Of a DNA stretch of 64,000 bases, positions 1 to 31,700 are shown in pieces (within the stretch, counting starts at the first letter, position 1; every line of letters begins with the position of its first letter). A program made the position numbers and the translations under genes. This DNA is from a virus. The DNA lies in IMG/VR virus record IMGVR_UViG_3300035698_004821, positions 29,085 through 93,084 of that record, one strand, 5' to 3'. A model generated the notes under the pieces. It was not told the origin of the DNA. It did no database searches and saw only the letters and a list, made by a program, of their open reading frames with translations.

Positions 1-1
1 G

Positions 2-3000
2 TATAAAAAGAACTACATCAGTTCACTGAGCGCTATGTTATTAGCCAGTGATGCGCCCTCTTCTTTTGTGTTCACTAAGCCTGGATTTTTAGGGCACGAA
101 GAAGGGAAGTTTCTAATAAGTTCTCCGCAGCTAACTAAGATGTTCGGCGGTGACTTAGAGAAACACACCTTAGACAAGGGTCTTTTTCAACTAGCTAAGC
201 TTAAGCACACAGACAGTGGTCTAGCGCGAAGCCTTATAGAGGAGGGCATAGACCCAACTGCGCCGTATGTGATAGCGGGTGAAAGTCGTGGGCAAACGTT
301 AGCTAGACTAAAGCTGAAAGTAGGTATTGTTGATACAGCTAATGATGCTGTATCTCGTTTACTATTCCAAGAAGGCGGAGCTATACTTGGTAAGCCGGGC
401 ATAGCTATGTTTGCACAGAATGCACCTATGGGTGATCTGTCCTTCTCTTCACCTTCTGAGAAACTCATAACCTCAGTAGAAGATGTCTTTGGTATTAACC
501 TGGGAGCAGGCAATGTACAGACCTTCGACTGGAGCCCAACTACCCAATTAGGCAAAGCAAAAACTGAAGACTTAAAGAGAATACTTAAAGCTAGTGGAAA
601 TCAGAGAGGCTTGGCTAGGCTACTGGCTGTGACAGACAACAGGCTAGCCAAAGTAGAGCTAACTGACTCAACCCTTAAGCTGAGCTTCGTCACCCCTAAT
701 AGGGTGACTCCTGCCACCTCTGAAATTAACATAGCGGCCCGTAGATTCGCCGCCACTAAGCTCAATGACTTTAACAAACTAGCTAACTCTGGCATCCCCG
801 AAGACCTATTAGAGAGTGTTCATGTTTGGCATGGTGCCGATGAGTATCTTAAGAACCATGGTCCTGATGTCTTTATCACCAACTTCATAGAAAAGGTAAA
901 AGGCAGAGACGACGCCGAAGTAATATTCCGTAAAGCTTTTGGACACGCAGCTAACATATCTATAAATGGTAAAACCAGAATGGTTGTGCCCGAGATTACC
1001 AGTGTAGATCACGCTTACCGTAACTCTAAGTTACTCGTCCTACGGATGCTCAGAGGAGGCACAGATGAAGAGAAGACGCTAGCCGCAACGATACTAAAGG
1101 GAAACAAGGTAGTTACAGATAAGATGCTCAAGTCTGGCATCACGGGTGTCACTGTAATTGGTATGGGTGGCGCGTCTAGAACTGACTTCATGGGTGATAT
1201 CAATATGATGAACCCTGTGACTATCTCTCCAACTAAGATGACCCACATAGCTGCTGGTGCAAGGCAGCTAGGCTATGACCATCTGTACCAAGACCCAATG
1301 TACAGTCTCTTGGCTGGATCTAATAAATCATGGAATAGTGGGGATATACGTGTACTAGCCGGATCAGGTCAGCTCCATATTAGTGACAAGCATATAATGT
1401 CCAGGTACGCTAAAGCTTTATATGCTAAACCAGGACACATAGATCCGTCGGCTATAGTTACGCTTAACAAGGGCGGAGGCTTTTCAATAGGGGGTAAACC
1501 ACTTAGAGCACTACCTACTGACTTTAACGATTTTTCACATGCTAAAGGTGTTGATTTTAGCCGATTAGAAGGTACCATTTTAGGCCAAAAGCAGGACATG
1601 TTGTATCTTGACCTAGGCAAAGAAAGGCAACTAGATCTTTTGGGCTCAGGTAAAAAAAGTTACAGATACTTGCCTATACCTTTAGACTACCTAAGAGTTA
1701 AAGAAGGGTTACATAACAGACTAATAATTGGCAAAAAGAACCCAACACGAGGTATTGTCCAGTCACTAGTAGACATAGACTCTAATAGAGACTTTTATAA
1801 GGATGTTTTAGCTGAGCTAGAAAATACAGAGTCAAAATTAGGCCGTCAAATGAGCCAAGGCTTCTTTAGCCTTAACAAATCTATAGCGGGTAAAGAAGGT
1901 ATTTTCCAAAAAAGCAACACTATCCTTATGCCATTAGGCGCAAGAACTAGATTGACCCCACAATCGGGTAGTTTCTTTGACATGGCATCTTTAGATGATG
2001 CCAGTAAACTATACACCAGTGTTATGTCTTCTTCAGATTTTGAAGACTACTTAGCTAGAAAGAGCGGAACAGGGAAAGGAGTCCAAAAGCAGATAAGCAA
2101 GATCAAAGAGCTGGTTAAGAAGCAGGGTCACTTCTACGCCATGGTATCTGTAGACCCCATGCAGAGAGCAGAGCACGCTAACCTGATGCGAATTCGAGTG
2201 GATCCTACTATACCTGGCTCTGCAAAGATAGGTCAGCTTAACATGGCCCAGCACCCGTTCTGGTATTTATTGTCGGAAAGAGACACAGACAGAGATGCTG
2301 CGTCTATAGTCCCTCTATCTGGTATGAGTAATACAGGGCTAACAGACGAACAAATAAACTCTCTGCTAGAAGATAGATGGTTGAGACAGCAAAAGCTATC
2401 TAAGCACTTTATGTGGTTTTACAAGCACCAGCTACTGACGGGTAGCGTGGCGTCTGCTGAAGATAGATTCTCTCTTTTAAAGAAAGGTCTAGTTAAGGCT
2501 AAGAACGCTATTAACCACATACCTACATACTTAGGTATTTCTGAGTCACTTGGTTACTCTACAGTGCGTGCCTCAGAAGACATAATGAGTAACCTCATAG
2601 CCTATGATGTGCGTGGCGCAAGACTAGCTGGCGTCAAACACTCAACAGCGTCAGATGAAATGCTGAAACTTATACGCGCTCCCTACGCTAATGACAAGGT
2701 AAGAGCTGAAATAGCTAGAAAAGCATACCAAAACATATACCAGTCACCTGTTGTTAAAGCTGGAAAAGACCTTCTAGGTGCGTTTGACGCGGCGCTCATA
2801 GACATTGGACACAAGTACAAGGGTACTGCCTTCGACTATGACAAAGTAGTAAGTGAAACTGCAGACGCTTTCTACGATCTTTTAGCCGGATCAGGTAAGG
2901 TTAGATCATTCACAGAAACGGAATACCTATACAACAACTTCCCAAAGGTAAAGTCCTCTATGGACCTCATGAAGGCAGACCTAGAGAGAGGTGCTGAGTA

Positions 3001-3682
3001 CGCTAAAGAGAGTGGTAAAAAAGCCAAAGAACAAATCTTCAGAGCAACCTCTCAGCTGATGGGAGAAATGCTAGGTGGAGGCCAAGTTCTCGCTGCATCA
3101 CAAAGCATGCCTAAAGGTGTCAACAGTATTATACAGTCAATAATGAGACCTGAAACAACTCAAGCAGTTGTTGAGTCTAATGTTTTGAGACCAGCTCTTG
3201 GTCTTGAAGAGAAAAACAAAAATAGCCAAAAAGTGGTAGGTGCGCTTCAAGACACGGGTGGAAGAATGCCGATAACCGATGGCGATGCTAGTGAGTCAAT
3301 GATGTCTAAGGCGACTAAGTACTTCAACTCATCTAAGGGTAGAACTTTTGGTGCAGGTATTGGCATCGGCGCCTTGGTAGGCGCTGGTATAGTATCTAGC
3401 ATGTCTGGCCCTGAAGCACCAATGCCAAGAGACGTCGATGGACGTCAACCTACAGACCGTGCACCCGACGTGTACAGCACGCCACCAAGAATATATGGTA
3501 ACCACCAGAGTTTCTCCGCTTCAAAGCAGGGATCTCCAACGGCAATACCTAACATAGGGGCTTATCAGTTCCCGAGTTTTGGTAATTCATCAATAACTAT
3601 AAGGGACAGATCAAGTTCCAGCAACCCCCGTATGATCGAGAGACATATGAGAGATATATCTAACAGCGATTACACATACTAA
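2..3682 (+). CDS. 5'-truncated giant virion protein at the tape-measure/ejection position, with an RNA polymerase beta'-like (two-barrel) region and a C-terminal hydrophobic helix
   Basis: Frame is open from nt 2, so ATG 35 is probably internal. Motifs: LPIPLDYLR (1670-1696), GKEG (1889-1900), ARTRLTP (1940-1960), HP-x8-DTDRD-x5-PL (from 2252). Gly-rich hydrophobic segment FGAGIGIGALVGAGIV at ~3347-3395. Lies two genes upstream of the hub-like gene. Confidence 0.7.
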   Translation, partial: YKKNYISSLSAMLLASDAPSSFVFTKPGFLGHEEGKFLISSPQLTKMFGGDLEKHTLDKGLFQLAKLKHTDSGLARSLIEEGIDPTAPYVIAGESRGQTLARLKLKVGIVDTANDAVSRLLFQEGGAILGKPGIAMFAQNAPMGDLSFSSPSEKLITSVEDVFGINLGAGNVQTFDWSPTTQLGKAKTEDLKRILKASGNQRGLARLLAVTDNRLAKVELTDSTLKLSFVTPNRVTPATSEINIAARRFAATKLNDFNKLANSGIPEDLLESVHVWHGADEYLKNHGPDVFITNFIEKVKGRDDAEVIFRKAFGHAANISINGKTRMVVPEITSVDHAYRNSKLLVLRMLRGGTDEEKTLAATILKGNKVVTDKMLKSGITGVTVIGMGGASRTDFMGDINMMNPVTISPTKMTHIAAGARQLGYDHLYQDPMYSLLAGSNKSWNSGDIRVLAGSGQLHISDKHIMSRYAKALYAKPGHIDPSAIVTLNKGGGFSIGGKPLRALPTDFNDFSHAKGVDFSRLEGTILGQKQDMLYLDLGKERQLDLLGSGKKSYRYLPIPLDYLRVKEGLHNRLIIGKKNPTRGIVQSLVDIDSNRDFYKDVLAELENTESKLGRQMSQGFFSLNKSIAGKEGIFQKSNTILMPLGARTRLTPQSGSFFDMASLDDASKLYTSVMSSSDFEDYLARKSGTGKGVQKQISKIKELVKKQGHFYAMVSVDPMQRAEHANLMRIRVDPTIPGSAKIGQLNMAQHPFWYLLSERDTDRDAASIVPLSGMSNTGLTDEQINSLLEDRWLRQQKLSKHFMWFYKHQLLTGSVASAEDRFSLLKKGLVKAKNAINHIPTYLGISESLGYSTVRASEDIMSNLIAYDVRGARLAGVKHSTASDEMLKLIRAPYANDKVRAEIARKAYQNIYQSPVVKAGKDLLGAFDAALIDIGHKYKGTAFDYDKVVSETADAFYDLLAGSGKVRSFTETEYLYNNFPKVKSSMDLMKADLERGAEYAKESGKKAKEQIFRATSQLMGEMLGGGQVLAASQSMPKGVNSIIQSIMRPETTQAVVESNVLRPALGLEEKNKNSQKVVGALQDTGGRMPITDGDASESMMSKATKYFNSSKGRTFGAGIGIGALVGAGIVSSMSGPEAPMPRDVDGRQPTDRAPDVYSTPPRIYGNHQSFSASKQGSPTAIPNIGAYQFPSFGNSSITIRDRSSSSNPRMIERHMRDISNSDYTY

Positions 3683-3683
3683 C

Positions 3684-6600
3684 ATGACAACCACAACATT
3701 AACTAACTATGCAAGCGCATATGCAGTAGGCCGCCAGCATGTTCACTTTGACTGCAGGGCGAGCACACCAACTACTGGTTTAATGAGTGATCGAGATGCC
3801 CAAGGATATTGGAGGGTTATTCGCGCAGGATCAATTATTAAACGTGAAAATGGTATATTAGACTTTGCTTGGCTTGGTCTAGACGGAGACATCGTACAAT
3901 GCATGGCTGTCGATAGTGCTGGCAACAAAGGGGAGTTTGTATCTTACACTTATAGTGTTGCTGCGAACACTGCCGCTGATGTTGTTTACTACGTCAACTC
4001 AGCAACGGGTAATGACTCTACTGGTGATGGCTCAAGTGGCCTACCTTGGGCTACTCCAGGTAAAGCTGCTACTGAGATGGCCTCGGCCTTAGGTGGCACT
4101 GAATCAGGTGTTATCTTTATCTCAGGCAGTAACACATACGTGATTACTGGATCCTTATGGGGTGGTGGTGATGCACTAACCCGTCAGGTTAGGTTTATAT
4201 GGGATGGGACTGGTACGAAGCCGACTCTTAGCTTCTCGAATAATGCTACAGGATTTATCACTGGTAAGCGTGAGTCGCCACATATTGAAGGCTTTATATT
4301 AGATGGTGACGCGGTAGACGGAACTGCTAATAGTTACTGCGTTACCTTTAACCGTGATGGCGGAGTCGCAGCTGATCGATCGGCCTACAACATCATGTTG
4401 GTCAATTGTGACCTGCGGAACTTTTCAAACCATATTGAAGGTAATGAGGTAACCGTAGGGTCATCGGACCGATCATCTGGCTGTTTTGACTTTGTCGCTC
4501 TTGAAAACTGCACACTAGCGGGTATTCACGGAGCATCTCCAGGTGCCCAGTACTACCTTTACTCTTGGAAGTACGTAGAGAAGTGGTTACTTAACAACGT
4601 CTCATTCGGTGCTGCGGTTAGTTTCAACTCAGGTATAAGACTACTACAGACAGGTAGAGGTTATACCTCTGATGTTGTAGAAGACTACGGAATCAAAAGA
4701 ACCCGATTCACTATCGCTCCAGGAGTAGGTAACGAGACTAAACTTCAGTCTCACGTTCGATGGACTAAGTATGCTGGAGATGGAGATGATGTCATAGGTT
4801 ACGAGACTGATGCGTCTAACGTTGGCATTAGTTACGTTGAAGATATTCGATACTACGACTGTAGGCTACTGGATTCAAGAATATCTTTTAGAGCTAATGA
4901 AGGAGCAGTTCTAAATGGTGTTAATGTCACTAGGTTTGACATTATCAATACAGTATCTAAAGGCTACCATATTGGTAGGACTGCTGCTGTAGGTCACTCC
5001 ATTAGCTCCATCAGGTGGAGGGATTGTGCAGTAATCAGAGACTACCAAAATGGCGCATTCATCACTATAGATGGTGTAGCCGATGGTCTAGAGACTGACT
5101 CCTTACTGTTCAACGGCTGCTACGTTTATTGGCGGATGACTAATGGCTTTGAAGGTGGTGGTGTATTCTACTCTGCGTTCAATGCACTAAGAGCCACGAT
5201 CGCTGCGGCAGTTCACGGTGACTCTGATAATAACCATACTGCTAAAGTAAACTCTACTTTCCTGCGGTGGGCTTCTCACTCAGATGATTCTGGGGAATCT
5301 GACTTAACTCAATGGCAAGCTGTATCTGACGCTGACGACTCTTCAGATACACATAATAGTACTACACTATTCTTAACTAATAATGGTGCATCTGACTTTA
5401 GAGATACTGATGTCACACTAACTAGTGGAGCAGGACCATTAAATAATGTTGGATCTCCCTTAGCTCTTGGCGTTGCTATTGACTCAGCAGGTAAGTTAAG
5501 AAGTGCCTCTACCCCTGATGCAGGACCCTATGAGTTTGGAGCTACGGATCTACCCGACGACCCACTACCCGACGACCCACTATCCCCTCTATTAACTACG
5601 AGTTCCATGCCTGTTGTTACAGTCGAGGTACAGTCCCCACCGGTGACGCCTTTGCCCCTAGTATCAGCAGGCTCTATACCTGCTGTAACAGCGAACATCG
5701 CTACATCTACAGAAGTAGTGGTTGGTTCTCCTCTTATATCCACAGTTAGCCTACCAGTAGTGGTTGGTTCTCCGCTTATACCCACGGCTATCCCACCCCT
5801 TTCTAGTGTAAGTAGCCTACCAACTGTAAGTGTTGCTTCCGTTGATCACTTTCAAATTGACACAGCTGGACCAGGAATGGAAAGCTGGAGATCTACAAAA
5901 TTCTCGGCTACAGTTAATGGTGATACAGCCTACGTCTATGCACATACTAGAGAGACACAGTTTTCGTGTTCAGTTTGGGACGCAGGGGTTGATGTTGAGC
6001 AGTCCGTGCTTAGGTATGGCGCTAGTGAAGCAACGACAGTAACCATTAGTCTTGCGGATGCCACTGCAATTACGTCTGCTATAGTCTACCCAAAAAACTT
6101 AGGTGTTACCCAGGTAATTTCAATGGGAGTCTTGACATTGACCGTGCCTGCGAATGTCAGACTACGGGTTGAGGTTAATGGGGACCGTGCCGAAGTACTG
6201 TCTTTACTCGCCAACCCGCTTACTTCTACTCCTACCTCAGTAGTTGACTACACAACTCTAGCAAAAGCTATTGACTCTGTGAGTACTACTGCAGACGGGT
6301 ATATAACTATTACGGCGCATGGTTGGACTGGGTTTTTACGCGGTCTTATGACTACGCCAGATGAGTTACCAACACCTACCGAAGGTACAATAGGGGCTTA
6401 TGAAGCAGTTCTTCTTTTGGTCATTGATGAAAATACTGTTGTAATTTTAGACGATAATTACGTCCCAAGGACATTTAGCGCATCAGGTAGTGATGTGTTT
6501 ATGTCTCCAGCCCAATGGACTGATACGGTTAACACACTGTTAATACCCGCCGGTCAGCATAACATAGGTGCTCAGTTTACCCTGGGTGATAACGTAAGCG

Positions 6601-8075
6601 TCTACCTTGAAAAAGGGGCTGTAGCCCTAGGGTCATTTCAAATGAACTGCACTAATGCAAGGGTACATGGTCCTGGCGTTTTAGCAGGAACTCACGTTGA
6701 TTCTCTGGTTGGCTGGAACTCGGGGGACTTTAATGTAAAAGTAGTTACATCTATGTTTTACAGGGCCCCCACTAGTTCTGATGATCACTCTAATACTATT
6801 GAAGATATCACAGTGTTGGGTAGCCCTTTCTTTTTAAACTTTTTAGGTGTAAAGAAGTTTAAAAATGTGGCACATATATCTCCCTGGAATTACTCAACAG
6901 ATGGTTTTGCTCCTCAGACTATAACAAGTAACGAAAGTGATATAAGTGAGATCATAGATTGTTACGCTCTTTGTGGCGATGACGCGTTACGAATAAGTAT
7001 AAGAGAACGTAGCTGTGAAACTTCAGGCACCTTTGTTACCACTACAAACAATTCATGCATTAGCAGTGACACTAGGGTGCATTTTATTAATGAAAATAGG
7101 TATAGCAAGACTACAGACACGCACTTAATGCATTTAGGAAAAGCGGATAGTGTCGGGGGTAATATAGCCTCTAAAACAATAATTAAGTTATTGACCGACG
7201 GTCGCGATAACACACCACCCTTTGGTCACTTCAACTACACTTTTGAACGGATCAATGTATGGGGACCAATAGAGTCTAGGCTTTTTTGGTTGGGTAGTTT
7301 AGCTAACCCGTTTCAGGTTAGTAGAGGTTTGCATGGTGTGGTGCAAAACGTACTCTTTAAAGACTTTACTGTAGAAGCAGTCCCTGGTCAAATCTCATCT
7401 ATCACATCTAAGGATGCCACTAACACACCCTCTAATATTACTTTTGAAGAACTATCTATAGGCGGCCAAAAAATATTTAGTGATAACCGGCATTCTTATG
7501 TGTCCGTGTCGGGTCTTGCATATGATATAGTCTGGGACATTCGGCCTGGCACAATACTTCTTGATCCTTCTGAGGTGCACAGCATCTCGTCTATTAATCT
7601 TCTTTATGCTGGTGATGTACCGGCCATACTTGTAAGTAATAGTGAATCAGTAGCGACTACATCAGCTGGGCAAGGAGGCTTAACAGAGGTTATAGCTTTT
7701 GATCTACACCTAAAGGTAGGTCAAGCAACAGCCTCTGGAACTAATGAGCCCATTGATCCACCAAGAGATCCACCGACCGAGCTACCCGTATTTAGCATAT
7801 CCGTTCCCTCCTCTACTCCCAGCTTAGAGCAGGCTGTGGCTATACGGGATGAAGTGGTGCTGCCTATACTGCTAGAGCTTGATAAAATTGATAACAATAT
7901 TGCTAAAGCATCCACTAATAGCAAGGTGGTGTGGTCGCAAAGTGTATTAGATCGTATAGAGGTTCCTGCTGTGTCACGGACCATAATTAAAATTAAAGCT
8001 GCCAACTACAGTAAGTTCACCCGAAGGGTGGACAGTCCTGTCGTAAGAGCGTCCACACCTAGACGAAGATTCTAA
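3684..8075 (+). CDS. Two-module beta-helix protein; putative polysaccharide depolymerase (module 2 GH49/GH28-like)
   Basis: Module 1 starts YYVNSATGNDSTGDGSSGLPWAT and ends TPDAGPYEF, typical ends of right-handed beta-helix domains. A Pro/Val/Ser linker follows. Module 2 has SAIVYPKNLG..VEVNGD..LLANP, VYLEKGAV, VHGPGVLAG, STDG and GDDALR. Confidence 0.7.
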   Translation: MTTTTLTNYASAYAVGRQHVHFDCRASTPTTGLMSDRDAQGYWRVIRAGSIIKRENGILDFAWLGLDGDIVQCMAVDSAGNKGEFVSYTYSVAANTAADVVYYVNSATGNDSTGDGSSGLPWATPGKAATEMASALGGTESGVIFISGSNTYVITGSLWGGGDALTRQVRFIWDGTGTKPTLSFSNNATGFITGKRESPHIEGFILDGDAVDGTANSYCVTFNRDGGVAADRSAYNIMLVNCDLRNFSNHIEGNEVTVGSSDRSSGCFDFVALENCTLAGIHGASPGAQYYLYSWKYVEKWLLNNVSFGAAVSFNSGIRLLQTGRGYTSDVVEDYGIKRTRFTIAPGVGNETKLQSHVRWTKYAGDGDDVIGYETDASNVGISYVEDIRYYDCRLLDSRISFRANEGAVLNGVNVTRFDIINTVSKGYHIGRTAAVGHSISSIRWRDCAVIRDYQNGAFITIDGVADGLETDSLLFNGCYVYWRMTNGFEGGGVFYSAFNALRATIAAAVHGDSDNNHTAKVNSTFLRWASHSDDSGESDLTQWQAVSDADDSSDTHNSTTLFLTNNGASDFRDTDVTLTSGAGPLNNVGSPLALGVAIDSAGKLRSASTPDAGPYEFGATDLPDDPLPDDPLSPLLTTSSMPVVTVEVQSPPVTPLPLVSAGSIPAVTANIATSTEVVVGSPLISTVSLPVVVGSPLIPTAIPPLSSVSSLPTVSVASVDHFQIDTAGPGMESWRSTKFSATVNGDTAYVYAHTRETQFSCSVWDAGVDVEQSVLRYGASEATTVTISLADATAITSAIVYPKNLGVTQVISMGVLTLTVPANVRLRVEVNGDRAEVLSLLANPLTSTPTSVVDYTTLAKAIDSVSTTADGYITITAHGWTGFLRGLMTTPDELPTPTEGTIGAYEAVLLLVIDENTVVILDDNYVPRTFSASGSDVFMSPAQWTDTVNTLLIPAGQHNIGAQFTLGDNVSVYLEKGAVALGSFQMNCTNARVHGPGVLAGTHVDSLVGWNSGDFNVKVVTSMFYRAPTSSDDHSNTIEDITVLGSPFFLNFLGVKKFKNVAHISPWNYSTDGFAPQTITSNESDISEIIDCYALCGDDALRISIRERSCETSGTFVTTTNNSCISSDTRVHFINENRYSKTTDTHLMHLGKADSVGGNIASKTIIKLLTDGRDNTPPFGHFNYTFERINVWGPIESRLFWLGSLANPFQVSRGLHGVVQNVLFKDFTVEAVPGQISSITSKDATNTPSNITFEELSIGGQKIFSDNRHSYVSVSGLAYDIVWDIRPGTILLDPSEVHSISSINLLYAGDVPAILVSNSESVATTSAGQGGLTEVIAFDLHLKVGQATASGTNEPIDPPRDPPTELPVFSISVPSSTPSLEQAVAIRDEVVLPILLELDKIDNNIAKASTNSKVVWSQSVLDRIEVPAVSRTIIKIKAANYSKFTRRVDSPVVRASTPRRRF
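5550..5582 (+). repeat. 15-bp tandem repeat (ctacccgacgaccca x2) encoding LPDDP-LPDDP linker
   Basis: Exact units at 5550-5564 and 5565-5579, followed by a partial cta. Confidence 0.95.
5714..5785 (+). repeat. Imperfect 42-bp-period repeat encoding VVVGSPLI x2 in the linker
   Basis: agtagtggttggttctcc occurs at 5714 and 5756, each followed by N-cttata-N-ccac. Confidence 0.9.
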
Positions 8076-11000
8076 TGCTAGAAAATAACACAAACCTACA
8101 GATAGGACCCCTAAAGTATAGCCACGTTGTTCAGAAAATTGCTATACAGGAGAGAAAGTCTGTGGACGTCCTAGAGACTACAAGGTCGAATAGAAACTTT
8201 GTAGTAGACTCTGGCGAAGCAATGCACAAGGCGCAGATAAGACTATTGTTTACTGGGCTAGATGAGATCAATAGAGGTGCAGGAGCCGAAGGCGAAGAGA
8301 GTGGCCTAAGAGGACTGATAGCTCTATTCCGTACTGCCCCCATTATCTCCATACTAAACAAGTACCTGAATACATCATGGAAGAAGCAGGACGAACTGCT
8401 TAGAGAGGATGATGGCTCCCTCTCTGAGGGTAGTGTCTATTTCTCAGAGATAGTTCCTGTGGCCTTAGATGGTATAGAGCTAGAGAATGTCCCTGACATT
8501 CCCTTTAGTATCCAGGTCACGCTGTCGGTATCTAGGGTTGAGATTGGCCCTGTGTCTAACTCCGAAGTTCTGTATTACCTAGGTGAGAATAGCAAGGAGG
8601 ATAGGAAGGAGAGACCTCAAGATGCCTTCTGGTTAAGGAAGTGGATAGAGCAGATATTAAGTTCTGATGAAATACCAGAGCTAAAGCCTACCGACTTTGA
8701 TAAAGCTAACTTTAACTGGTACGGTAAGACAGCAGTTGGCACAAGCATAGAGACTAATAGAGAGAACTTTCACTTACACCTTACTACATCAGATACAACG
8801 ACAGGCGGTGTACTCATATCTGAGAACTGCTCCATGCGCCATAGGTTTGCCTACAACAAGCTACTGGGTAACATCTTCTCCTTTCCAACGCACATGGGAT
8901 CCACAGCCCGATCTATGTCTCTGGACATTGTCTTCAACAACCAGGAGTCGGATGAAACGTACGCCCAGTTCTGCAGGTTCAAGGAGACAGCGGATGAGAT
9001 AGCTAAGAGCAAGAATAGGTTTGATAGAGTCACAGGGTGGCACATTCAGACCCCTATATCTAAGTTGCTTGGCCTTAAGAAGACGACACTAGCCGAAGGA
9101 GTCCCAGGTCAAAAACCATACGAAGGGGTGTACGTGCCTGTTAATATTACCTCTGAGAGTGGGGAGCAACCTAATATGGTCAACTGTAGAATAGACCTAC
9201 TAGAGAGTAATGTAGACTTCTACAGGGATAATGAGATCAACCTAATCAATGGAGGCACAGACTATGAGGACCTGTGGCAATACTTTGATAGTATTATGGA
9301 TCAGGAGTTCGCCTTTCGGAAGAAACTAAGGGATGATAAGGATGCGGCCATACGAGAAATAGTAGGTAGAAGTAGTGAGGATAACTACAAAGGGTACCAG
9401 CTGTTCTGGCCTATAACCCAGGGGGTTACAAAGATCAAGACAGCTTCTCCCTTTGCTATACTAAATGTAGATACACTACGTGCCGTCTTCCTGGACCCTG
9501 ACTTTGATGTAGGTGGAAGGATACGTGACGCACTGTTGAACCACTCTCTAACATACGGGGAGGTGGTAGCCAACCGTCGAGTAATTATATCTGATAAAGT
9601 TGTACAGAATGGTAGCCTAATTTGGAGAACTTTTGCTGGACTAGACAACAATGATCTAGAGACAGGAAAACTAATAGAGGCAATTCGTAATGTAGTTGCT
9701 ACTCAATTCATGACTTGGTCTGACTTAGAGGAGCCAAGTGTGCAGGACATAGTTCGACATTTAGCTAATCCGGCTACCTTAGGTGATCAACCCCCAGAGA
9801 TTCTAGGTGGGCTTGGAGCCGTAGATATTCTATCTACTGCCATAGCTATAGACCTAACCCGAGGGTTCTTAGGTGATGCTAAAAGCTTTTTTACTACAGA
9901 ATCATCAACAGGAAAAGTACTTTCTAGGCTATTCTCAAGTAAGTATGAGTTCCTTCCAGCCTTCAAGGAGGCTTTGTTTAAGGTAATAACAGAGCGAAAG
10001 GGTAAGCCTAAACTCCTACCTCATGTATATTCTACAGATGGTGTCTACTCTGCCTTCTACAAACTCATAACATCCTACACCCTAGAGAAGGACGCCACCA
10101 TAGGCATACAAGAGGCAAGAGATAACTATGTACAGGACAATAGGAACCTACAGGGCTCCAGTCTATACCCTGACCTTTTACTGCCTACGTATGTTGACCT
10201 CTATGGGAAAGATAGATGGAGTGAGTTCGCGCCGACTATAGAAGACTTAGGTCTAGACACTTACTACGAGGGGGCACTTACTTCAGAAGACCTTAAGGCT
10301 GTTCAAGGTAATGACATCGTGTCACCTGCTGCATGGTTCTATATAAAGCGAGTTAAGAATGGGGAGACAGGCTTGAAAAGCCTAGCCAGAACTACGGCTG
10401 ACGTCATAGACAAGACTAGTCCCAACCTCCATATCTCCATGCCCTTCAATACTAATGAGATAGCAGACATCAAACAGCTGATCCAAAAGGATGGGAAAGA
10501 GACAGGCATGAAGGGTATGAAGACTAACCGTACCCTCTCTGAAATCATTGAGGATTCCTTATACTCCTACAAGGAGTCTGACCCCTCTGGGTACAGACAA
10601 GACCTAACCACCCTACTAACTAACGCTGATAAGTTTGAAGAGGGGTATCTAAAGGATAACGGATCTCTTAAGGTCTACATACACCACAATAATAACTACT
10701 CGATACCTAGGGAGATTAATGTTCCAGGACTAGGTGCTCAAGTATACAAGATAGCGAGCAAGAAGAGAGAGCTCAATACTGATAAGCTACGCAGACTAGA
10801 CGCAGATGCGGCGTACACGACTCCTCTTGAGGAGGATGTCAAGTTCAACAGACACCTAGATGGCAACACTAGAAAACTTATGGACTCTTCTCTTAGCCAA
10901 ATACCAGATGACCAGTACAGCCCGGAAAGGTTGTTCCCATCTATAAAGGTATTCCTGATAGACAGAAGAGGCAATGACATAATAGCAGACGATGGTCTGT

Positions 11001-14000
11001 TCTCTGTCAACGCCATAGTCTCTGTGGATGTGACACTAGATAAACAAGACGCCCCACTGGCCGTGATAAAGTTAGCTGACCCACTGTACACACTGCAGAA
11101 TGACTACTTCGATAAGTCCAACATATCCAACAGGGATAGCAAAGGGAACGCTTTACCTGAGAATAGAAAGAAGGTCCTAGGCTCTCTAAGAGACCCTGAC
11201 TCAGATAGCAACCTTAAGAGATACAAACTCATCCAGGGCAGATCCATACAGATCAGGATGGGCTATAGCTCCATGGCGTATAACCTGCCTATCGTATTCA
11301 CAGGCAGAATTACAGAGATAGTGCCTGGTGATCAGCTCACTGTCGTGGCGCAAGGCTGGAAAGCTGAGCTTATAAACCGTAAGGTTAGCTTCCTTAACAA
11401 GGAGCCTGCCAACTGGGGAGCAAGAGACCTAGCTATCCAAGCGATAACCTACGCGAACCCGGATGGGTTCGGCGATAAGTTCCCTGAGCATGACGCTCAG
11501 TTCATCCTACGTAACCTTAGAAACCAGGATGTCGCTTCCGCAGTTACTAACGCTATAGATGCCTACCAGAACATCCAATTAGAGGGTGTCGGCTCGACAG
11601 GTGTTGTAGGTGGCTTAGGCAATTACATAATCAAGACCATAGGTCTTAAGTCGGTTACTAAGAAGGATAAAGGCTTTGACACACGCCTAAAGAACATATG
11701 GTATCCGGATACATCACTGTACAGTAACGTATTCGGTCTGAGATCCACCTTTGGTTTAATGCCTAGCTTCCTAAACGATAGCTGGATTATACCCTTACAG
11801 CCCGCCTGGGACGCCCTACAAGAGGCGTCAAGACATGCGTGGAACTGCATTATAGATGTGGTGCCATACGATAATGAAGCAACCATCTTCATGGGCCATC
11901 CTGACCAGCCTTATTACTTCACTCGGGGTACAGCCCTTAGCAAGGCGCTGTATAACAAGTACAGGAAGAGCTCTAACAAAGATGTTAACAAGGTGTTGAG
12001 CAACTTGTTCAATGGGTTCTTAGACTCTAAGTACTATGCCAATGAGGCTCCAGACTTTATAGAGGGTCGGATTAAGGCTGCTGCAGCACTACTGACTGAA
12101 AGACAAGGCTTCTTTGTAACTAATAGGAACGCGATTTCAGCTGCTGCCGCTAGCATCTTCCGAGGAGTAGAGCTATCGGGTCTGTCCGCATTCGGTTCCC
12201 TAAGTGACTACTATAGGCTGTACGCCAAGTACTTACTTGAAGACAAGGGTAACGCCTCTGAGCTTGTCGCGTCCAATGCCATATTTGAGGAAGCAGAAAA
12301 GTCCGGACTACCCTTAGCTAGACTAGAGCAGGTGAAGAATACGGGTGTATCTTCCGACTTCACTATCCTAGTCTTTGCCAAATTCTTTGGCATAGATGCT
12401 AGTAGAATATTCATAGGCTGGCCGAATGCAGACAAGGATATAAATCAAATACTAGCTAGGAACTCAAACGTGGAGGACTTCCTGAAGCCTGTAGAGATAG
12501 CTATAGACGGGCTGACGGGAAGGAGCTACTACAGCGACAAGTTATTGGAGTACATAGACAAAGACCTACGCCGAATAAACTCTACTAGACCCCTCGTTGA
12601 ATATGTGAGCGCAGGATCAGGTGGAGCCTCAGTTAGTGCCTACAGCATTCTACCCACCCTTAGATACGCCAAGACGTCTACGTCGTACCTGAGTAACGAA
12701 GGTCTTACCTCGTTCATTACTCAAAGCTTAGAAGCCTACAGTACTGATGATGCATCTAGCAGAGGTCTACTGGATAAAGCTTCACACAGGGCAACACTGA
12801 CGGACCTTAGGGCCAAGATAGAAGCCATCAGATCCAACAAGGAATACATAGTTAGTAAGTCCATACTCAGTGAGCTTGGTGTACCAATTAATGGAAAGCT
12901 GTCTGACATAGTCAAGGACAACATAGCCTTATTCAAGATATTCATGTACTTCTTCTGCTCCTACGTCATGGAAGACGGAGAGGCTATACAGACAACACAA
13001 GAACTTACTGAGGATAATGACTTCAAGTTGCCACCGAACATGAAGGTGTTTAGGGTACATCACTACGCTGACGATGACCACAACATTATACAGAATAACA
13101 TTGTGTCTACTACTCGTGAGATGTGGAATACGGTAGTTATTGAGCACCCTTCCGCTGGCTCAGCCGAAGACACCGTTAGCTCAGAAGAGCAGCTCTACAC
13201 TCAGGGAAGAATCAATGCAGGCGCCAACTGGGTGTACTACCCCAAGCAAGAAGTGACAGGTGTAATAGGTCTACAGTTCCACCCTGGTCTAACATTAGCT
13301 AATAAGAAAATAAAGGTATTCACAGAGCTAAACTGCCAGAGCCCTGAGCTCGCTGCAAAGCTGGCTTGTAACCACCTTGCCCAAGGCATTAGAAAGATGT
13401 ATCGTGGTAACTTGCTCCTACTGGGTAAAAACATTAAGCCCCACGATAGAATCATCTTAGGTGACAAGTACACCAACATGGCTGGACCAGTAGAGGTGGA
13501 GAGCGTGATACATCACTGGAATGCTGATCAAGGTTGGGTAACCAACATCATACCTAATGCTGTATGCGACTCCAACCCAGGAGCAGGTATACTACAGACA
13601 GCTGCCATGGAAGCTACCTTCCAAGGTGTCTTCAATGTAATTGACTTCGTATCAGACGCACTCATGTGGGCTACAATTATAGCAACCCTAGGCGCGGCTA
13701 CTCCTCTAGCTGTGGGTGCCTTTAGTGTTAAGCAGGGTGTATTAGGTTTAGCCAAGAAGGTAGTGAGTAAGGGTCTACGTGGGAGCTCTAAAGAAATCCT
13801 CAAGTCGTATGGAAGAAGACTCAAGTCCGCAGGGGCAGGGGCAGGTGGTGTTGGCGGTGCGCTCCTAAAGAGAGGGCAGTCGGTGAATGCACTTAGAAAG
13901 GTCTTCCGTGAAGTAGCCGGTCCAGGAGTAGCTTTGCTTAGCAATGAGTTGAAGATAGGCGCAGCAGAATTTGGGGCACATATGTTCTTTAAATCCAATG

Positions 14001-14203
14001 TTATCGCTGGGTTTGTTGATTCATCTAAAGATGTCGAACAACTGCCCGTAATTCTATCCCCCATACTGTTCAATGGCAACCCATTTACATCAGGGCTAGA
14101 GACAGAGGATGCCATATGGGCCATAGCCTCTTTCGGATTCTACTACTCCTCAAGAGAGCTTCAGAGAGGAGCAGCCCTTCTTTACGATGAGATCTTTAAA
14201 TAA
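8075..14203 (+). CDS. Giant baseplate hub-like / central tail protein (2042 aa)
   Basis: IQIRMGYSSMAYNLPIVFTGRITEI resembles the hub (gp27/gpD-type) strand motif. A late G...IKPHDRIIL..VESVIHHW motif is present. Lies upstream of the gp25-like and J-like genes and has hydrophobic C-terminal helices. Confidence 0.7.
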   Translation: MLENNTNLQIGPLKYSHVVQKIAIQERKSVDVLETTRSNRNFVVDSGEAMHKAQIRLLFTGLDEINRGAGAEGEESGLRGLIALFRTAPIISILNKYLNTSWKKQDELLREDDGSLSEGSVYFSEIVPVALDGIELENVPDIPFSIQVTLSVSRVEIGPVSNSEVLYYLGENSKEDRKERPQDAFWLRKWIEQILSSDEIPELKPTDFDKANFNWYGKTAVGTSIETNRENFHLHLTTSDTTTGGVLISENCSMRHRFAYNKLLGNIFSFPTHMGSTARSMSLDIVFNNQESDETYAQFCRFKETADEIAKSKNRFDRVTGWHIQTPISKLLGLKKTTLAEGVPGQKPYEGVYVPVNITSESGEQPNMVNCRIDLLESNVDFYRDNEINLINGGTDYEDLWQYFDSIMDQEFAFRKKLRDDKDAAIREIVGRSSEDNYKGYQLFWPITQGVTKIKTASPFAILNVDTLRAVFLDPDFDVGGRIRDALLNHSLTYGEVVANRRVIISDKVVQNGSLIWRTFAGLDNNDLETGKLIEAIRNVVATQFMTWSDLEEPSVQDIVRHLANPATLGDQPPEILGGLGAVDILSTAIAIDLTRGFLGDAKSFFTTESSTGKVLSRLFSSKYEFLPAFKEALFKVITERKGKPKLLPHVYSTDGVYSAFYKLITSYTLEKDATIGIQEARDNYVQDNRNLQGSSLYPDLLLPTYVDLYGKDRWSEFAPTIEDLGLDTYYEGALTSEDLKAVQGNDIVSPAAWFYIKRVKNGETGLKSLARTTADVIDKTSPNLHISMPFNTNEIADIKQLIQKDGKETGMKGMKTNRTLSEIIEDSLYSYKESDPSGYRQDLTTLLTNADKFEEGYLKDNGSLKVYIHHNNNYSIPREINVPGLGAQVYKIASKKRELNTDKLRRLDADAAYTTPLEEDVKFNRHLDGNTRKLMDSSLSQIPDDQYSPERLFPSIKVFLIDRRGNDIIADDGLFSVNAIVSVDVTLDKQDAPLAVIKLADPLYTLQNDYFDKSNISNRDSKGNALPENRKKVLGSLRDPDSDSNLKRYKLIQGRSIQIRMGYSSMAYNLPIVFTGRITEIVPGDQLTVVAQGWKAELINRKVSFLNKEPANWGARDLAIQAITYANPDGFGDKFPEHDAQFILRNLRNQDVASAVTNAIDAYQNIQLEGVGSTGVVGGLGNYIIKTIGLKSVTKKDKGFDTRLKNIWYPDTSLYSNVFGLRSTFGLMPSFLNDSWIIPLQPAWDALQEASRHAWNCIIDVVPYDNEATIFMGHPDQPYYFTRGTALSKALYNKYRKSSNKDVNKVLSNLFNGFLDSKYYANEAPDFIEGRIKAAAALLTERQGFFVTNRNAISAAAASIFRGVELSGLSAFGSLSDYYRLYAKYLLEDKGNASELVASNAIFEEAEKSGLPLARLEQVKNTGVSSDFTILVFAKFFGIDASRIFIGWPNADKDINQILARNSNVEDFLKPVEIAIDGLTGRSYYSDKLLEYIDKDLRRINSTRPLVEYVSAGSGGASVSAYSILPTLRYAKTSTSYLSNEGLTSFITQSLEAYSTDDASSRGLLDKASHRATLTDLRAKIEAIRSNKEYIVSKSILSELGVPINGKLSDIVKDNIALFKIFMYFFCSYVMEDGEAIQTTQELTEDNDFKLPPNMKVFRVHHYADDDHNIIQNNIVSTTREMWNTVVIEHPSAGSAEDTVSSEEQLYTQGRINAGANWVYYPKQEVTGVIGLQFHPGLTLANKKIKVFTELNCQSPELAAKLACNHLAQGIRKMYRGNLLLLGKNIKPHDRIILGDKYTNMAGPVEVESVIHHWNADQGWVTNIIPNAVCDSNPGAGILQTAAMEATFQGVFNVIDFVSDALMWATIIATLGAATPLAVGAFSVKQGVLGLAKKVVSKGLRGSSKEILKSYGRRLKSAGAGAGGVGGALLKRGQSVNALRKVFREVAGPGVALLSNELKIGAAEFGAHMFFKSNVIAGFVDSSKDVEQLPVILSPILFNGNPFTSGLETEDAIWAIASFGFYYSSRELQRGAALLYDEIFK

Positions 14204-23761: not shown

Positions 23762-26191
23762 ATGACATACCCTATATTCTCTGATCACGCACCCACTGGG
23801 GAGAACGCTACAAAGGTAGTGTCCCCCAACTCATATAGTACAGCCGGCAGAACTATCGGGTACCCTAACCGGTTTGATGTGTACGTCCAGCATCTTTCTG
23901 ATGCCGACGGATCTAAATCTGTCATAGAGTCCAGAGAGGTTGCTGACCTCATTGGTAGTCGACTATACCTGCACCACAGGCCTATGGTCAACTCAGACGG
24001 GACACCATCTACGATATCTGCATCCGACGGCACTATAGACTCCTCGTTTACCAACGCTTCTCAAAGTTATATCGTATTCTCTGTCCTACCAACTGCAGCC
24101 TTCACGGTCAGCTATGTGGCTGTACCAGATTGTGACCTATCTTGGAGTGTTAATAATCTGCAGAACTCTGTTATGGAGCTTCAAGGGCAGTTAGGACCAG
24201 ACAACGATACTGACTACCCAGGCATCAAGAACCTCAAGATAGCTACGTTCAATAACCCCACAGGCTTTACGGCCGACGGCGTGCTGAATAATGGTGTTCA
24301 CTTACCTCACCTGGACCAGAACATAACCATAGCCTCTAGTGATGACCCTACCCTACAGATACTGAGAGGTACCGGATACACCATCCAGATTGGACGAGAG
24401 GCTGATAACATCATCGTAGACGGCGAGAGCTTCACTGTAACGCAATCAGATGGATCAAAGGTATCAGAGATCAATCTAGGAACTAAGACCGGAGACTCGA
24501 TCTGGTGGAAGGGTGTGGCATCAGGAGCTGGTCCTCTCTCACTAGGTGGCCCAGAATGGGCTGGCTACTCAGGTGTCGTGTTCGCTGGTGACCTTACAGG
24601 GGCCTACTACACAGGCTCAATGCTGCGAGTACATGGTGACGCCTCCTTTATGGGAAACGTTAAAGCCATAGGTAACATCACAATTATCAACAGCACAGGA
24701 AGCACATCTACTGTCATAGGTGACTGGACTATCCGAGACGAGCTGTTTGTAGAAGGCATCTCTCACCTACAGGGCCCGACCATAACTAGTCAATTAACCG
24801 TACAAGAGAACCTACACCTAGACAAGGACCTCATAGCTAATAACGCGGCAGGTCAAGGTGGAGGAGGCCAATCTCTGGTTGATGGTTTAGATTGCTCTGA
24901 GATAGCTTGGACGTACAATACAAGTATTAAAGCTAGACATGCTAACAGTGTTGTCTCTGCTCCGATGAACACATCCTACGCCGACCCTAAGAATGTAACC
25001 TATAGACCCTGGATGTCACTAGGCCCAGACAGCCTGGTTGGTGATATCTTTGCTATCACAGGGTCACTGAATGCTACGGCGTCTAGTTCCGGCGCTCACC
25101 CACATATACTCCAACTACTAATGAATGTCTCTATGGTCAGCGGCACCTACAGTGAGTATGGCTATGAGTCAGGTTACTGGTCACCTGGTATGATGGAGCC
25201 AGGATCTATGTGGATCAAGATGCTAGACGGCCAGGCACAGGGATTCAACTCGCCTATCTACGGACACACAGTGGAAGAGACGGGTACGGTTAATACACTA
25301 ACGAGACTTAATGTCTTCCTTCCGGAAGCCATCTCCAACCCCCCTCAAACGAATAACAACTACATACTGTACAACCCGGGCTCTGTTCGGTACAACACAG
25401 TAAGTGCTGCTGGTGGAGCAGGACCCACTTTCTCTATCAACGCGTCAACTACAGAGCCTTTAGCTCTGTCATTCGAGGACTCAGTCCGAGTAATGAAGTC
25501 TAACTCCTCATCATACTCACTGACTGCTGCTCTCAACAGTTCAGTCTCAGGCTTAGGTGGCTCACCTGTAACAGGTGTCGCTTACATCTATGCGGATGCT
25601 AATGGCACTGACCCTGAGAACCCACCTATCTTTAAGGCAAGACCAACTTCCATACGTATGAAGAACCAGACACCGGTCGGCGAGGTCGTGGCATCCACCA
25701 ATGGGGCCACATGGACTATCCTAGATACTGTATCATACAGACCGAATGGACATTATGACTCAGCTTGGATACCTATCTTCAATGACGAAAACGTATCAGA
25801 GGTCTCTGGTCGTTGTGTGCCCGGCTTTACGAGTGACTCGACGGACTACCTACAGGTATACTTCCACCATGATCTTGGGACAGACCTAGACATTGGTAAC
25901 ATCTCGGCTAACCTATTCTTAGGTTCCCGCGCATCTGCTACACCTGATTGGAATCAAACTCATACGCCTATGTACAGTTTCTTTGGCCAAGACAGTAGAA
26001 ACCCTCATGGTATATCTGGGTCCTTTACTCACGTGTCTCTAGGTGCAAAGAGTGTGCCCAATGCTGTGGGTGACGCAGAAGCTTCTATCTTCTTCTTAGA
26101 TAGTTCACTAATAGGTATTGATATAAGCCCTGGACTCCTAGCAGGTGCACAACAAAACTACCTAAGACTATCCGTAAACAAGAATAACTAG
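23762..26191 (+). CDS. Tail fibre-like structural protein
   Basis: VNNLQNSVMELQGQLG helix, short beta repeats (LRVHGDASF, LFVEGISHL, LTVQENLHL) and LVDGLD motif as seen in trimeric fibres. Confidence 0.6.
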   Translation: MTYPIFSDHAPTGENATKVVSPNSYSTAGRTIGYPNRFDVYVQHLSDADGSKSVIESREVADLIGSRLYLHHRPMVNSDGTPSTISASDGTIDSSFTNASQSYIVFSVLPTAAFTVSYVAVPDCDLSWSVNNLQNSVMELQGQLGPDNDTDYPGIKNLKIATFNNPTGFTADGVLNNGVHLPHLDQNITIASSDDPTLQILRGTGYTIQIGREADNIIVDGESFTVTQSDGSKVSEINLGTKTGDSIWWKGVASGAGPLSLGGPEWAGYSGVVFAGDLTGAYYTGSMLRVHGDASFMGNVKAIGNITIINSTGSTSTVIGDWTIRDELFVEGISHLQGPTITSQLTVQENLHLDKDLIANNAAGQGGGGQSLVDGLDCSEIAWTYNTSIKARHANSVVSAPMNTSYADPKNVTYRPWMSLGPDSLVGDIFAITGSLNATASSSGAHPHILQLLMNVSMVSGTYSEYGYESGYWSPGMMEPGSMWIKMLDGQAQGFNSPIYGHTVEETGTVNTLTRLNVFLPEAISNPPQTNNNYILYNPGSVRYNTVSAAGGAGPTFSINASTTEPLALSFEDSVRVMKSNSSSYSLTAALNSSVSGLGGSPVTGVAYIYADANGTDPENPPIFKARPTSIRMKNQTPVGEVVASTNGATWTILDTVSYRPNGHYDSAWIPIFNDENVSEVSGRCVPGFTSDSTDYLQVYFHHDLGTDLDIGNISANLFLGSRASATPDWNQTHTPMYSFFGQDSRNPHGISGSFTHVSLGAKSVPNAVGDAEASIFFLDSSLIGIDISPGLLAGAQQNYLRLSVNKNN

Positions 26192-26193
26192 AT

Positions 26194-28785: not shown

Positions 28786-31700
28786 TGGTAACATACGTCT
28801 ACTCACTAAGTCCTAGCGGACCAACGTCTAGCATCCAACAAGTGATGAATAACATCACTGCCGAGCTGTCTACTGACCCAGTTATATCTAGGGACATTGA
28901 GGTCTTACTAGGCAGGGGTAACTATGCTGGGTTTACGATACCTACTGGAGCCCTGCTCCCACTGTTTGGTACCCCCTACCGCCTCAACATAAAGGCGGCC
29001 GGTGATTTCTTCCCCATAGTTGACTTTAACTACTCAGACCCTTCTCAGGTTGTTGGCATAGATATAGGCTCTGGTAATCCTAATGTGACGATCAAGGGAC
29101 TCAGAGCTCAGTACTTTGCTATTGGTATACGGGCTGGACTAAACAGTCACTTCCCTCTTGTACGTAACTGCATAGCAAACAACAACCGTAACGTTGGTAT
29201 CATGTTCGAGCAGTCGGCAGAGGCACAAGCACTACAGAACGTTGTCATCAATGGTGACTACGGTATCGTGTCCCGTCTGTGTAAGTCCTCAGCTATAATA
29301 CATAACACTATATTCCAGAACGGTGCCATTAGCACGCAGGTAGGAAAGTCTAAGTCCTGCATCTGGGCTGAGTCTGCTAACGACTACGGAGGTGGCCTTA
29401 ATGACACTGGCGTAATACACCTAGTAGGTAACGTGGCATGGAACACATCAGGCAGGTGCTTGACGCTGTTCTCTAACAACGTTGACCAGCCTGGTGCCAT
29501 AGTATCGAATTACAACGACTGGGTCGTAGGCGATCCAGATGACTTCATAGCTGTAGAGGACAACGCCTTTTTCTTCGGCCCTGAAGCTGAACCTAGACAG
29601 GTGTTCACCAACCTAACGGCATGGAAGTCAATAGGTTTCGACGCTAACTCTATAAGCCAAGACCCTAAGTTCATAGCACCCATTAAGATCAGAGCAAATA
29701 GAAACGGCTTTGCTATTGACCTCAATCTATTGCCTGTCTCCCCTGTCCTAGGGATGGTTCCTAGTTTTGCCTTCAACTCAGTAGCAGCTCAGGAATGGAT
29801 ACCAAGCTACACGGACACATCACATATAGCCACAGACATACTTAGAAGTAACCGTAACCAATCTGGTACAGCTGCTGGATCTAATGAGAAGGTATCCTCG
29901 TCTGGTTTCTTTGGCCAGGACGTATTTAGTAACCCACTGGACCTTGGCCTAGCCAAGCAGTGTGGCGTTGACCCCTTCTCTAACGTACTCTTCAAGAGTC
30001 TAGACCTATGGTACCCCAAGCTGAAACGTGGCTACTTCTACTCTAACGATAGAGAGTTCTACCTATACTCAAGAAAAGAAACGATGACCATAGGTGAACT
30101 GTCGGCGACTACACTGTACCTACCTGCGGCTATTGTGCACAACAAACCAATAGAGGTGAGGGTAGCCGGAGGCGTCGTGGCTGCAGAGTACTATGACTTG
30201 ATCAAAGATCAACTTGTTATATACCATAAGAACCTACCTATATTCACAGGTAACGAAGAAGTGGAGATCAGCGGATCAATAGCCAACTGGAATGGGGACA
30301 GCTTTGTCCATAACACCGTACTCTATAGGCTTAAGATAAATGAGGGCCACACTAGGTACCTCCTTCCGGAATACTATGTCAATGTGGGTCCAGTCGTCAT
30401 TACGGATGATATGTCCTACCCAACGGATAGTGATGCTGTATCTAATAGAGAGTTTGCACTCTCTTTCGACCCTGACTCTAATACGTCAGAGATTATCCTA
30501 GCTAACAATACAAACAAGGTATTGAACTCTCAGTTCGATTACCTTACTACAGGTAGTCTCCCAACCTTTTGGGATTCTAGTCTCTGCACTATACATGACG
30601 GGGAAAAGCCTCACTTCACAGTTGCGGGTAGCAAAGTAGCGCACATAGCTGATCAAGGATACCTAAAGACATCGCTGCAGGTTAATACAGGTGACAGCCA
30701 CAACCTTTCATTCCATGCACGAAGTGATGGTAAGGGTGATATCTCCTGGGAGATAGAGTACTACGACGCCTCGCACAACGTCCTCGGTGTCGTCGAGACA
30801 GGTTCAATAGCTGCTACTGAGTCATGGCACAGGTACGTTATTGGCTTCAATACTACAGACCAAGACTTCGGTATAACTGTCCCTCAAAAACCCCACGCCT
30901 GTACATGGCTAACGGGTTACACACCACCTACTAGGTCTTACCTCATGACTGTTAAGCTCAAGCACAACTATAGCCCAGCATTCACAGGTGACCTAAAACT
31001 TGATGCCATACAGTATGAGAGCACAGACAATGCAACACTATACCACCGTAAGACCTTCTTCAGTGAGATGACTGTGGAGTATGAGGTTGGAGAGGACGAA
31101 CACTTCATTGATACCAAGTTGTCTATGTCTCCCGTAACAAACCTAATGACAGATGGTTTCCTCTATATCCCTGAGGTCCCAGCGGCTATGTACAACGGCC
31201 CGTACACACCTACTGTCACTACACTACATGAGTGGCGCTGGCCACTCGGTCGCAAGAACGTAATGCCTTGGGCTAGGAGCAAGGGAAAGGACAAGCTAAG
31301 GAAGAGGCCATTAGGCCTATTCAACCTTGTCCCAGAGGATAAGCCCGAGATAGTTTCTCCAGTTAGTAACTACCCAACAGCCGGCAAACTGTATGTAATA
31401 CCATCTATCCCATCCACATTCGTGGGGGACAAGAATGGAGTAGGCTTCAGTATCCGAGTGAGGGACACAGACAATAACCCGTTTGCTATAGCGGGCGTAC
31501 ACGTCACCCTATCGGACTATAACCTAAGGTACCCTGGCACATTATCTAAGAGGCTTTACGGCCTCAAGCAACAGCTAGGGGCTTCCATAAACACCCAGAC
31601 AGATAACTCTGGAGTGGTGTCCTTAACCTGGATACCACCCGATAGGAATGCAGGCATATACAGGGGACCTCTCCCTACCCCTAGTCTAACATCTACTATT

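Follow-up and report, generated by a model that had tools for sequence, protein, structure and literature searches.

An uncultured marine phage with a contractile tail carries a giant gene near the tape-measure position of its tail module; what does this gene encode? We examined this gene in a window of 64,000 nucleotides (the whole stretch of DNA analysed, positions 29,085 to 93,084 of IMG/VR record IMGVR_UViG_3300035698_004821; the viral record is 93 kb, linear and, by CheckV estimate, about 48% complete). The initial annotation had suspected in it a hidden catalytic region like that of RNA polymerase beta', part of a single-chain two-barrel RNA polymerase or a derivative of one, and this suspicion is largely supported by the model fold, the structures it matches and a conserved catalytic signature. 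Our findings point, with a probability of about 0.68, to a single-polypeptide two-barrel nucleotide polymerase of the cellular RNA polymerase superfamily, which would be active, DNA-dependent and carried in the virion. The gene lies in a tail module, and its product keeps an intact, invariant metal-binding loop.

The first letter of the window falls inside the polymerase-like gene and so leaves its frame open at that end. The full open reading frame (ORF), its upstream part now recovered from the record, spans window positions -838..3682 on the plus strand and encodes 1506 residues (P0002); the true start lies 838 nucleotides 5' of the window (contig 28246; L003:13246), not at the ATG at position 35 as had been supposed. 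Residues are numbered here on the part inside the window (P0001) unless stated otherwise; adding 11 to the residue numbers of the initial annotation gives P0001 numbering, and adding 291 gives P0002 numbering. A TAATG overlap joins the gene to the upstream 1446-residue gene, and TAAcATG to the downstream one.

Catalytic motifs and predicted fold

The motifs previously proposed as counterparts of beta' signatures were all recovered in frame 2..3682 when their positions were recomputed. In a family alignment of 52 sequences, with a mean column identity of about 21%, only 16 columns are invariant, and 12 of these 16 lie within the proposed motifs: R650, P719, Q721, H725, R760, D761, D763, D765, G851, Y852, Q914 and K919. 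Since invariant columns at 21% identity coincide with motifs named beforehand, the motifs represent more than chance. The two weaker downstream candidates, LGYSTVR and IYQSPVVKAGK, are likewise present and supply the last four of these columns. Homologues were expected to keep GKEG and DxDxD, and DxDxD is indeed absolute, with the second Gly of GKxG and RxR nearly so. In a 3-sequence alignment including a 25%-identical relative, K631, G633, R648 and R650 are invariant, and nine more distant proteins, which align only over the stretch from GKxG to DxDxD, all retain RDxDxD. Some distant relatives read RPTPTHGAGH in place of VDPMQRAEH, nearer the canonical NRxPxLH. The spacing from GK to the first Asp is 131 residues, against 127 in Escherichia coli rpoC (sequence fetched and measured), as had been indicated; that from HP to the first Asp does equal the E. 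coli value, yet measures 10 residues in both proteins and not 8. The motifs, all on the plus strand, are as follows (conservation refers to the 52 sequences).

1178..1240 (+), R393-M413: beta-type signature RTDFMGDINMMNPVTISPTKM; compare E. coli beta EDMP..DIVLNPLGVPSRMN
1667-1696 (+), residues 556-565: YLPIPLDYLR; compare E. coli beta' LPVLPPDLRP (residue 247); P558 invariant
1883-1912 (+), residues 628-637: IAGKEGIFQK; compare beta' GKQGRFR; G633 at least 90% conserved
1937-1960 (+), residues 646-653: GARTRLTP; compare beta' SGRSVI; R650 invariant, L651 at least 90% conserved
1883..1960 (+): IAGKEGIFQK..GARTRLTP, together the predicted entry to the catalytic double-psi beta-barrel (DPBB-A)
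2144-2158 (+), residues 715-719: VSVDP
2153..2176 (+): DPMQRAEH, putative counterpart of beta' NRAPTLH; P719, Q721 and H725 invariant, D718, R722 and E724 at least 90%
2249-2317 (+), residues 750-772: QHPFWYLLSERDTDRDAASIVPL, metal-binding loop with D761, D763 and D765; R760 and the three Asp invariant
residues 850-856 (+): LGYSTVR; compare beta' SGYLTRR; G851 and Y852 invariant, R856 at least 90%
residues 912-922 (+): IYQSPVVKAGK; Q914 and K919 invariant
2729..2767 (+): QNIYQSPVVKAGK, conserved loop or helix past the candidate bridge helix; Q914 and K919 invariant, Q910 and V917 at least 90%; a possible trigger-loop base, judged from sequence

The beta-type signature is also a family trait: the consensus at residues 393-413 reads RxDFMxDINxxKPxRxTPSKM, in keeping with the signature DIxxNP..P[ST][KR]M, and R393, D395, D399, N401 and K412 are each at least 90% conserved. 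R393 and K412 are therein candidates for the basic residues that the second barrel would supply, K412 perhaps corresponding to beta R1106. GKTRMVVPE was tried as an equivalent of beta GNKG and rejected; its K324 is not conserved in the alignment.

The fold was predicted with AlphaFold2, without templates, for residues 1-1100, using the 52-sequence alignment as input. The model has a mean predicted local distance difference test (pLDDT) of 89.8 and a predicted template modelling score (pTM) of 0.89. In the full protein, the N-terminal 480 residues are modelled confidently (pLDDT 83.7), and confidence drops past about P0002 residue 1350, with pLDDT below 50 from P0001 residue 1070. The best 50 Foldseek matches in the PDB are all RNA polymerase beta' chains, including those of phage AR9 and plastids; their E-values are weak, from 1.7e-3 (6wmp_D) to 2e-2, with probabilities of up to 1.0 (AR9 7s01_d). 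Isolated double-psi barrels (Cdc48-N, the designed msDPBB and VAT-N) align to residues 644-775, around the Asp loop, which is where the initial annotation had placed such a barrel. The feature that defines the two-barrel superfamily, a catalytic double-psi barrel with a DxDxD metal-binding loop, is thus found. DNA-dependent multisubunit subunits score equally or higher on each half of the model, and alignments to the largest subunits run through the region of helix 848-875; for residues 1-225 of the full protein (P0002), the searches gave nothing informative. In the model, a beta-like module, with a putative second double-psi barrel, precedes a beta'-like module in one chain, and the latter is predicted to comprise the catalytic barrel, three Mg-binding Asp (DTDRD), a candidate bridge helix with GY..R and helical, clamp-like parts. 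About 170 residues follow the polymerase part. Its layout is given below.

1..3682 (+): part of the polymerase-like gene inside the window (P0001, 1226 residues); last 1226 codons and stop
2..1201 (+), residues 1-400: predicted beta / Rpb2-like module, which would include the second double-psi barrel (DPBB-B, about residues 99-413)
1400..3211 (+), residues about 467-1070: predicted beta' / Rpb1-like module
1922..2326 (+), residues about 641-775: predicted catalytic DPBB-A; model strands 641-652, 672-676, 710-716, 726-734, 747-749 and 766-771
2543..2626 (+), residues 848-875: candidate bridge helix with LGYSTVR; a 28-residue helix in the model, and the probable bridge helix
3347..3403 (+), P0002 1396-1414: Gly/Ala-rich hydrophobic segment (Kyte-Doolittle scan), then a Pro-rich linker; conserved in relatives
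3404..3682 (+): conserved C-terminal tail (QPxDxxP .. PxIYG .. NSDYxY-end) and stop; near-invariant columns in the 52 sequences

Tail-module context and a possible route into the host

The genes run in the order terminase, portal, major capsid protein, a 1446-residue gene, tail sheath, two tube paralogues, three small genes, a second 1446-residue gene (P0003), the polymerase-like gene, a 1463-residue gene, a 2042-residue protein with a lysin-type C-terminal part, and baseplate wedge. The tape-measure position claimed initially is therefore only approximate: the slot between the tail chaperone-like genes and the hub holds genes of 1446, 1506 and 1463 residues before the 2042-residue hub. The polymerase-like gene thus shares the slot with other giant genes, three or four in all, among which it comes second. 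By sheath and terminase, the closest cultured relatives are jumbo myoviruses, namely Bacillus phage 0305phi8-36, Acinetobacter phage ME3 and Moorella phage MTATph1. The upstream neighbour P0003 (L003:8906-13246, contig 23906-28246) has homologues in ME3_35 (E 9e-30) and in 0305phi8-36 ORF145 (E 4e-21), the latter identified in virions by mass spectrometry. Two genes downstream of the polymerase-like gene, the 2042-residue protein (window 8075-14203) is homologous to the 0305phi8-36 hub/lysin ORF147 and to ME3_37, and its lysin-type C-terminal part matches phrog_20474 (2.3e-33); because of this homology and this C-terminal part, it is probably a baseplate hub or cell-puncturing protein. Three metagenomic relatives repeat the order of P0003-like gene, polymerase-like gene, variable gene and hub, with TAATG junctions. 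This recurring order and these junctions support co-expression with tail proteins, and thus virion association is likely, as judged from the tail-module site, the coupled genes and neighbours homologous to 0305phi8-36 virion proteins.

We propose that the polymerase would be synthesised alongside the tail proteins and would travel inside the virion, in the tail lumen or the head. Upon tail contraction it would be released into the host, perhaps partly unfolded, and its C-terminal hydrophobic segment could possibly hold it near the entry pore or the membrane. The first phage genes would then be transcribed as the DNA enters, with no need for the host enzyme, as is proposed for P23-45 gp96 (PMC10770324) and as crAss-like gp66 does. 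Taken jointly, an active DNA-dependent RNA polymerase that is packaged, released by contraction, held by its C-terminus and transcribing the first genes is an inferred picture that we place between somewhat favoured and fairly probable.

In ME3, the gene between the ORF145-like gene and the hub is ME3_36 (1603 residues, annotated hypothetical). The ME3 protein A0A172Q021, given as ME3_36, is a structural homologue of the polymerase model (BFVD E 1.1e-7), and ME3_36 has exactly one DxDxD (GGDHDQD), with REPAQG before it; it differs, however, in showing no significant sequence similarity to the polymerase-like family by hidden Markov model (HMM) or hhalign. Foldseek ranks two BFVD entries above it: first an unnamed protein (6.8e-11), then a protein of an uncultured siphovirus annotated 'minor tail protein' (1.2e-10). 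In 0305phi8-36, the slot between the same anchors holds ORF146, a 'hypothetical tape measure' that is found in virions by mass spectrometry and lacks DxDxD. A YonO-like polymerase (1246 residues, PF05183 1.1e-20, L012:43-3783 (-), 0305phi8-36 209484-211547) lies far from the tail module of that phage. Since this YonO-like gene stands outside the tail module and ORF146 is without DxDxD, related phages seem to place the two-barrel polymerase differently. P0002, ME3_36 and ORF146 all carry a Gly/Ala-rich hydrophobic segment about 110-120 residues from the C-terminus, and the sequence similarity among the three is not significant; this shared segment may represent a common membrane or tail-docking module.

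Weighing the evidence

Several observations weigh against a virion-borne, active polymerase. The motifs depart from the canon, with ER-DTDRD for NA-DFDGD and VDP for NRxP. For the polymerase-like protein, Pfam (E up to 1) and PHROGs gave nothing relevant, and PDB sequences, searched with phmmer and with a profile, gave nothing. The whole record contains no match to PF05183 or PF00623 up to an E-value of 10, although the positive controls were detected, and hhalign comparisons of the family profile with phi14:2 gp66, the 0305phi8-36 YonO-like protein and ME3_36 were not significant. Thus, at the sequence level, a link to any known polymerase family is absent from the searches made. In the non-significant alignments with the YonO-like protein and ME3_36, the best-scoring stretch is the Asp loop. 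Position in the slot does not by itself imply a polymerase either, because ORF146 is without DxDxD; a compact 170-kDa fold would need to unfold to traverse a tail tube; and the record covers only about 48% of the genome.

The fold and the catalytic conservation would also fit an active two-barrel RNA polymerase that is never packaged and works intracellularly, at a middle or late stage, like YonO or P23-45 gp64, and the related 0305phi8-36 does have its YonO-like polymerase outside the structural module. Yet translational coupling within the tail block implies late synthesis, which is poor timing for a takeover enzyme; the C-terminal hydrophobic segment and conserved tail are typical of ejected or tape-measure-like proteins, and the homologues of the neighbours are virion proteins. 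We therefore consider an unpackaged enzyme unlikely. Another reading is a polymerase-derived tail or ejection protein of mainly mechanical function, in forming or guarding a DNA conduit, in tail measuring or in DNA pulling, for which transcript synthesis would not be the aim. The slot shared with the proposed tape measure ORF146 speaks for it, as does the hydrophobic segment before the end of ORF146, ME3_36 and the polymerase-like protein alike. Nonetheless, absolute conservation of the Asp triad and 13 other residues of the active-site region at 21% identity argues for retained chemistry, and the model is a compact, high-confidence alpha/beta globule (pTM 0.89) and not an extended helical ruler; no Pfam or PHROG tape-measure family is matched, and only the position of the locus resembles one. 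A mechanical role is thus decidedly unlikely.

If chemistry is retained, it could still be of another kind, that of a QDE-1/RDR2-like RNA-dependent RNA polymerase, a primase-like enzyme or a PolD-like DNA polymerase. This we hold to be very unlikely: on each half, the subunits of DNA-dependent multisubunit enzymes reach scores at least as high, the beta'-type GKxG..ARTR, LPxP and GY..R motifs belong to transcriptases, and a double-stranded DNA phage has an evident use for a DNA-dependent enzyme. The PolD-like variant was set aside, PolD not being among the 50 structure matches listed, which is weak evidence. That the motifs are a chance resemblance in an unrelated protein would agree with sequence databases giving no link to polymerases, but two independent structure searches return RNA polymerases, and place the two halves in the expected order, and it is the motifs that stay invariant across the family; as far as computation allows, a chance resemblance is refuted and barely credible.

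A word-indexed search found 12 relatives of the polymerase-like protein, and an exhaustive profile search of 1.84 billion representatives found 58 clusters, 45 of them with E < 1e-30 and nearly all of 1450-1940 residues; 52 of these relatives make up the family alignment. Probably, then, polymerases are hidden in at least 58 protein clusters that currently go under 'hypothetical' or 'minor tail protein'. We regard it as an evenly balanced proposition that these form a new, sequence-orphan family of virion RNA polymerases, built as a beta-beta' fusion that carries a membrane segment of its own at the C-terminus and delivered by contractile tails in jumbo myoviruses related to 0305phi8-36 and ME3. 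The family may have branched off independently, with drastic reduction, from the multisubunit (beta/beta') clade and not from the QDE-1/YonO clade. No match was found with tblastn for the polymerase-like protein and one distant relative against 50,697 phage records, for two distant relatives against PDB sequences, or for five against Pfam. The family HMM gave no significant match to 0305phi8-36 ORF142, 145, 146 and 147, ME3_35-37 or MaMV-DC ORF82; a scan of viral contigs for related loci returned only the phage's own record, and no paralogue of the gene was found within the 93-kb record.

Comparison with known polymerases and neighbouring genes

To our knowledge, there are few known ways for phages to start transcription without the host enzyme: the T7-like giant virion RNA polymerase of N4, the split multisubunit virion RNA polymerases of phiKZ type, crAss-like gp66 and P23-45 gp96. 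The protein described here would add a compact beta-beta' fusion, with a core of about 1100 residues, which Pfam and PHROGs do not recognise and whose gene belongs to the tail module of jumbo phages with contractile tails. What is new would be the family, one of single-chain two-barrel polymerases, and its structural setting; the way of working would be that already known from gp96 and gp66. Published precedents for virion polymerases exist (PMC10770324; 10.1101/2020.03.07.982082). P23-45 gp96 (PDB 8h2m/8h2n; PMC10770324) is the N-terminal part of a 5002-residue tape measure in a non-contractile siphovirus, whereas the present gene is separate, with its own start and stop and 1506 residues, in a contractile-tailed phage, and is not fused to a tape measure. 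The C-terminal clamp region is absent from gp96; the present model, in contrast, matches Rpb1-type subunits to residue about 1070. No sequence similarity between gp96 and the polymerase-like protein was detected. The phi14:2 gp66 (PDB 6vr4) has 2180 residues and a DFDxD motif and comes from a podovirus-like crassvirus; hhalign shows no relationship to it. Neurospora QDE-1, plant RDR2 and the YonO-like phage enzymes (PF05183) give no family match; the beta'-type GKEG..ARTR and GY..R found here resemble multisubunit enzymes. The latter, cellular and giant-virus beta/Rpb2 plus beta'/Rpb1 as well as the split subunits of AR9 and phiKZ, amount to about 2750 residues against one chain of 1506 here; DTDRD replaces DFDGD, PF00623 is unmatched, and alpha, omega and sigma partners are not evident.

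A survey of jumbo phages lists two-barrel enzymes for group 1 and, beyond that group, only for 0305phi8-36 and Clostridium phage c-st, both of group 3; ME3 is not listed (PMC7824862). None of the motif variants of the present family is listed in the census table of PMC10770324, and its filter, [RK]xP..DxDxD, would miss the family because this reads VDP. No paper describing a polymerase in ME3_36 or its slot was found in the literature searched, which left most subscription journals outside its scope. Gene 36 of ME3 would offer a cultured model for polymerase delivery through a contractile tail. If the reading is true, transcription became coupled to DNA ejection at the tape-measure locus on more than one occasion, which is testable in ME3. 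The evolution of two-barrel polymerases could then be reconstructed with one more, highly reduced, member.

A second ME3 protein, A0A172Q0S6 (798 residues), matches the model weakly (BFVD E 0.1, probability 0.72, 684 columns) and might be a non-virion paralogue, as in P23-45; a search of ME3 with PF05183 found nothing. In Microcystis phage MaMV-DC, ORF82L (L016:6652-17334, -) encodes a hypothetical protein of 3560 residues with a canonical GDFDGD at residue 2537 and RSPPPGNTH before it. The MaMV-DC protein A0A075BUT7 matches the model in structure (E 1.6e-5), its identity with ORF82L not being confirmed. Transcriptomics of Ma-LMM01 described one tight early cluster of 5.8 kb and assumed the host polymerase alone (PMC5780444).

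Among the neighbouring genes, P0003 has the slower evolution when set beside the polymerase-like gene (identity to a Tara relative 71% against 52%, and to another metagenomic relative 48% against 25%), and no strongly hydrophobic segment was found in it by a Kyte-Doolittle scan (19-residue window, threshold 1.6). The 1463-residue gene (window 3684-8075) occupies the variable place of the slot: its counterparts have 898 residues in the Tara relative and 935 in another, it seems absent in one relative, and only its last 85-190 residues are conserved among relatives. It shows a weak PHROG 'tail protein' match and one hydrophobic segment at 676-703, and a language model gave a lead, to be taken only as such, to right-handed beta-helix or pectate-lyase-like proteins (0.86). 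The other 1446-residue gene (L002:10050-14390), directly after the major capsid gene, has no PHROG match and no BLAST similarity to the other giant genes. The two paralogues after the sheath (L003:5643-6329, 6371-7123) match phrog_9206, labelled 'major head protein', which is probably a mislabel, since in 0305phi8-36 the homologues are recorded as tail tube and tube paralogue.

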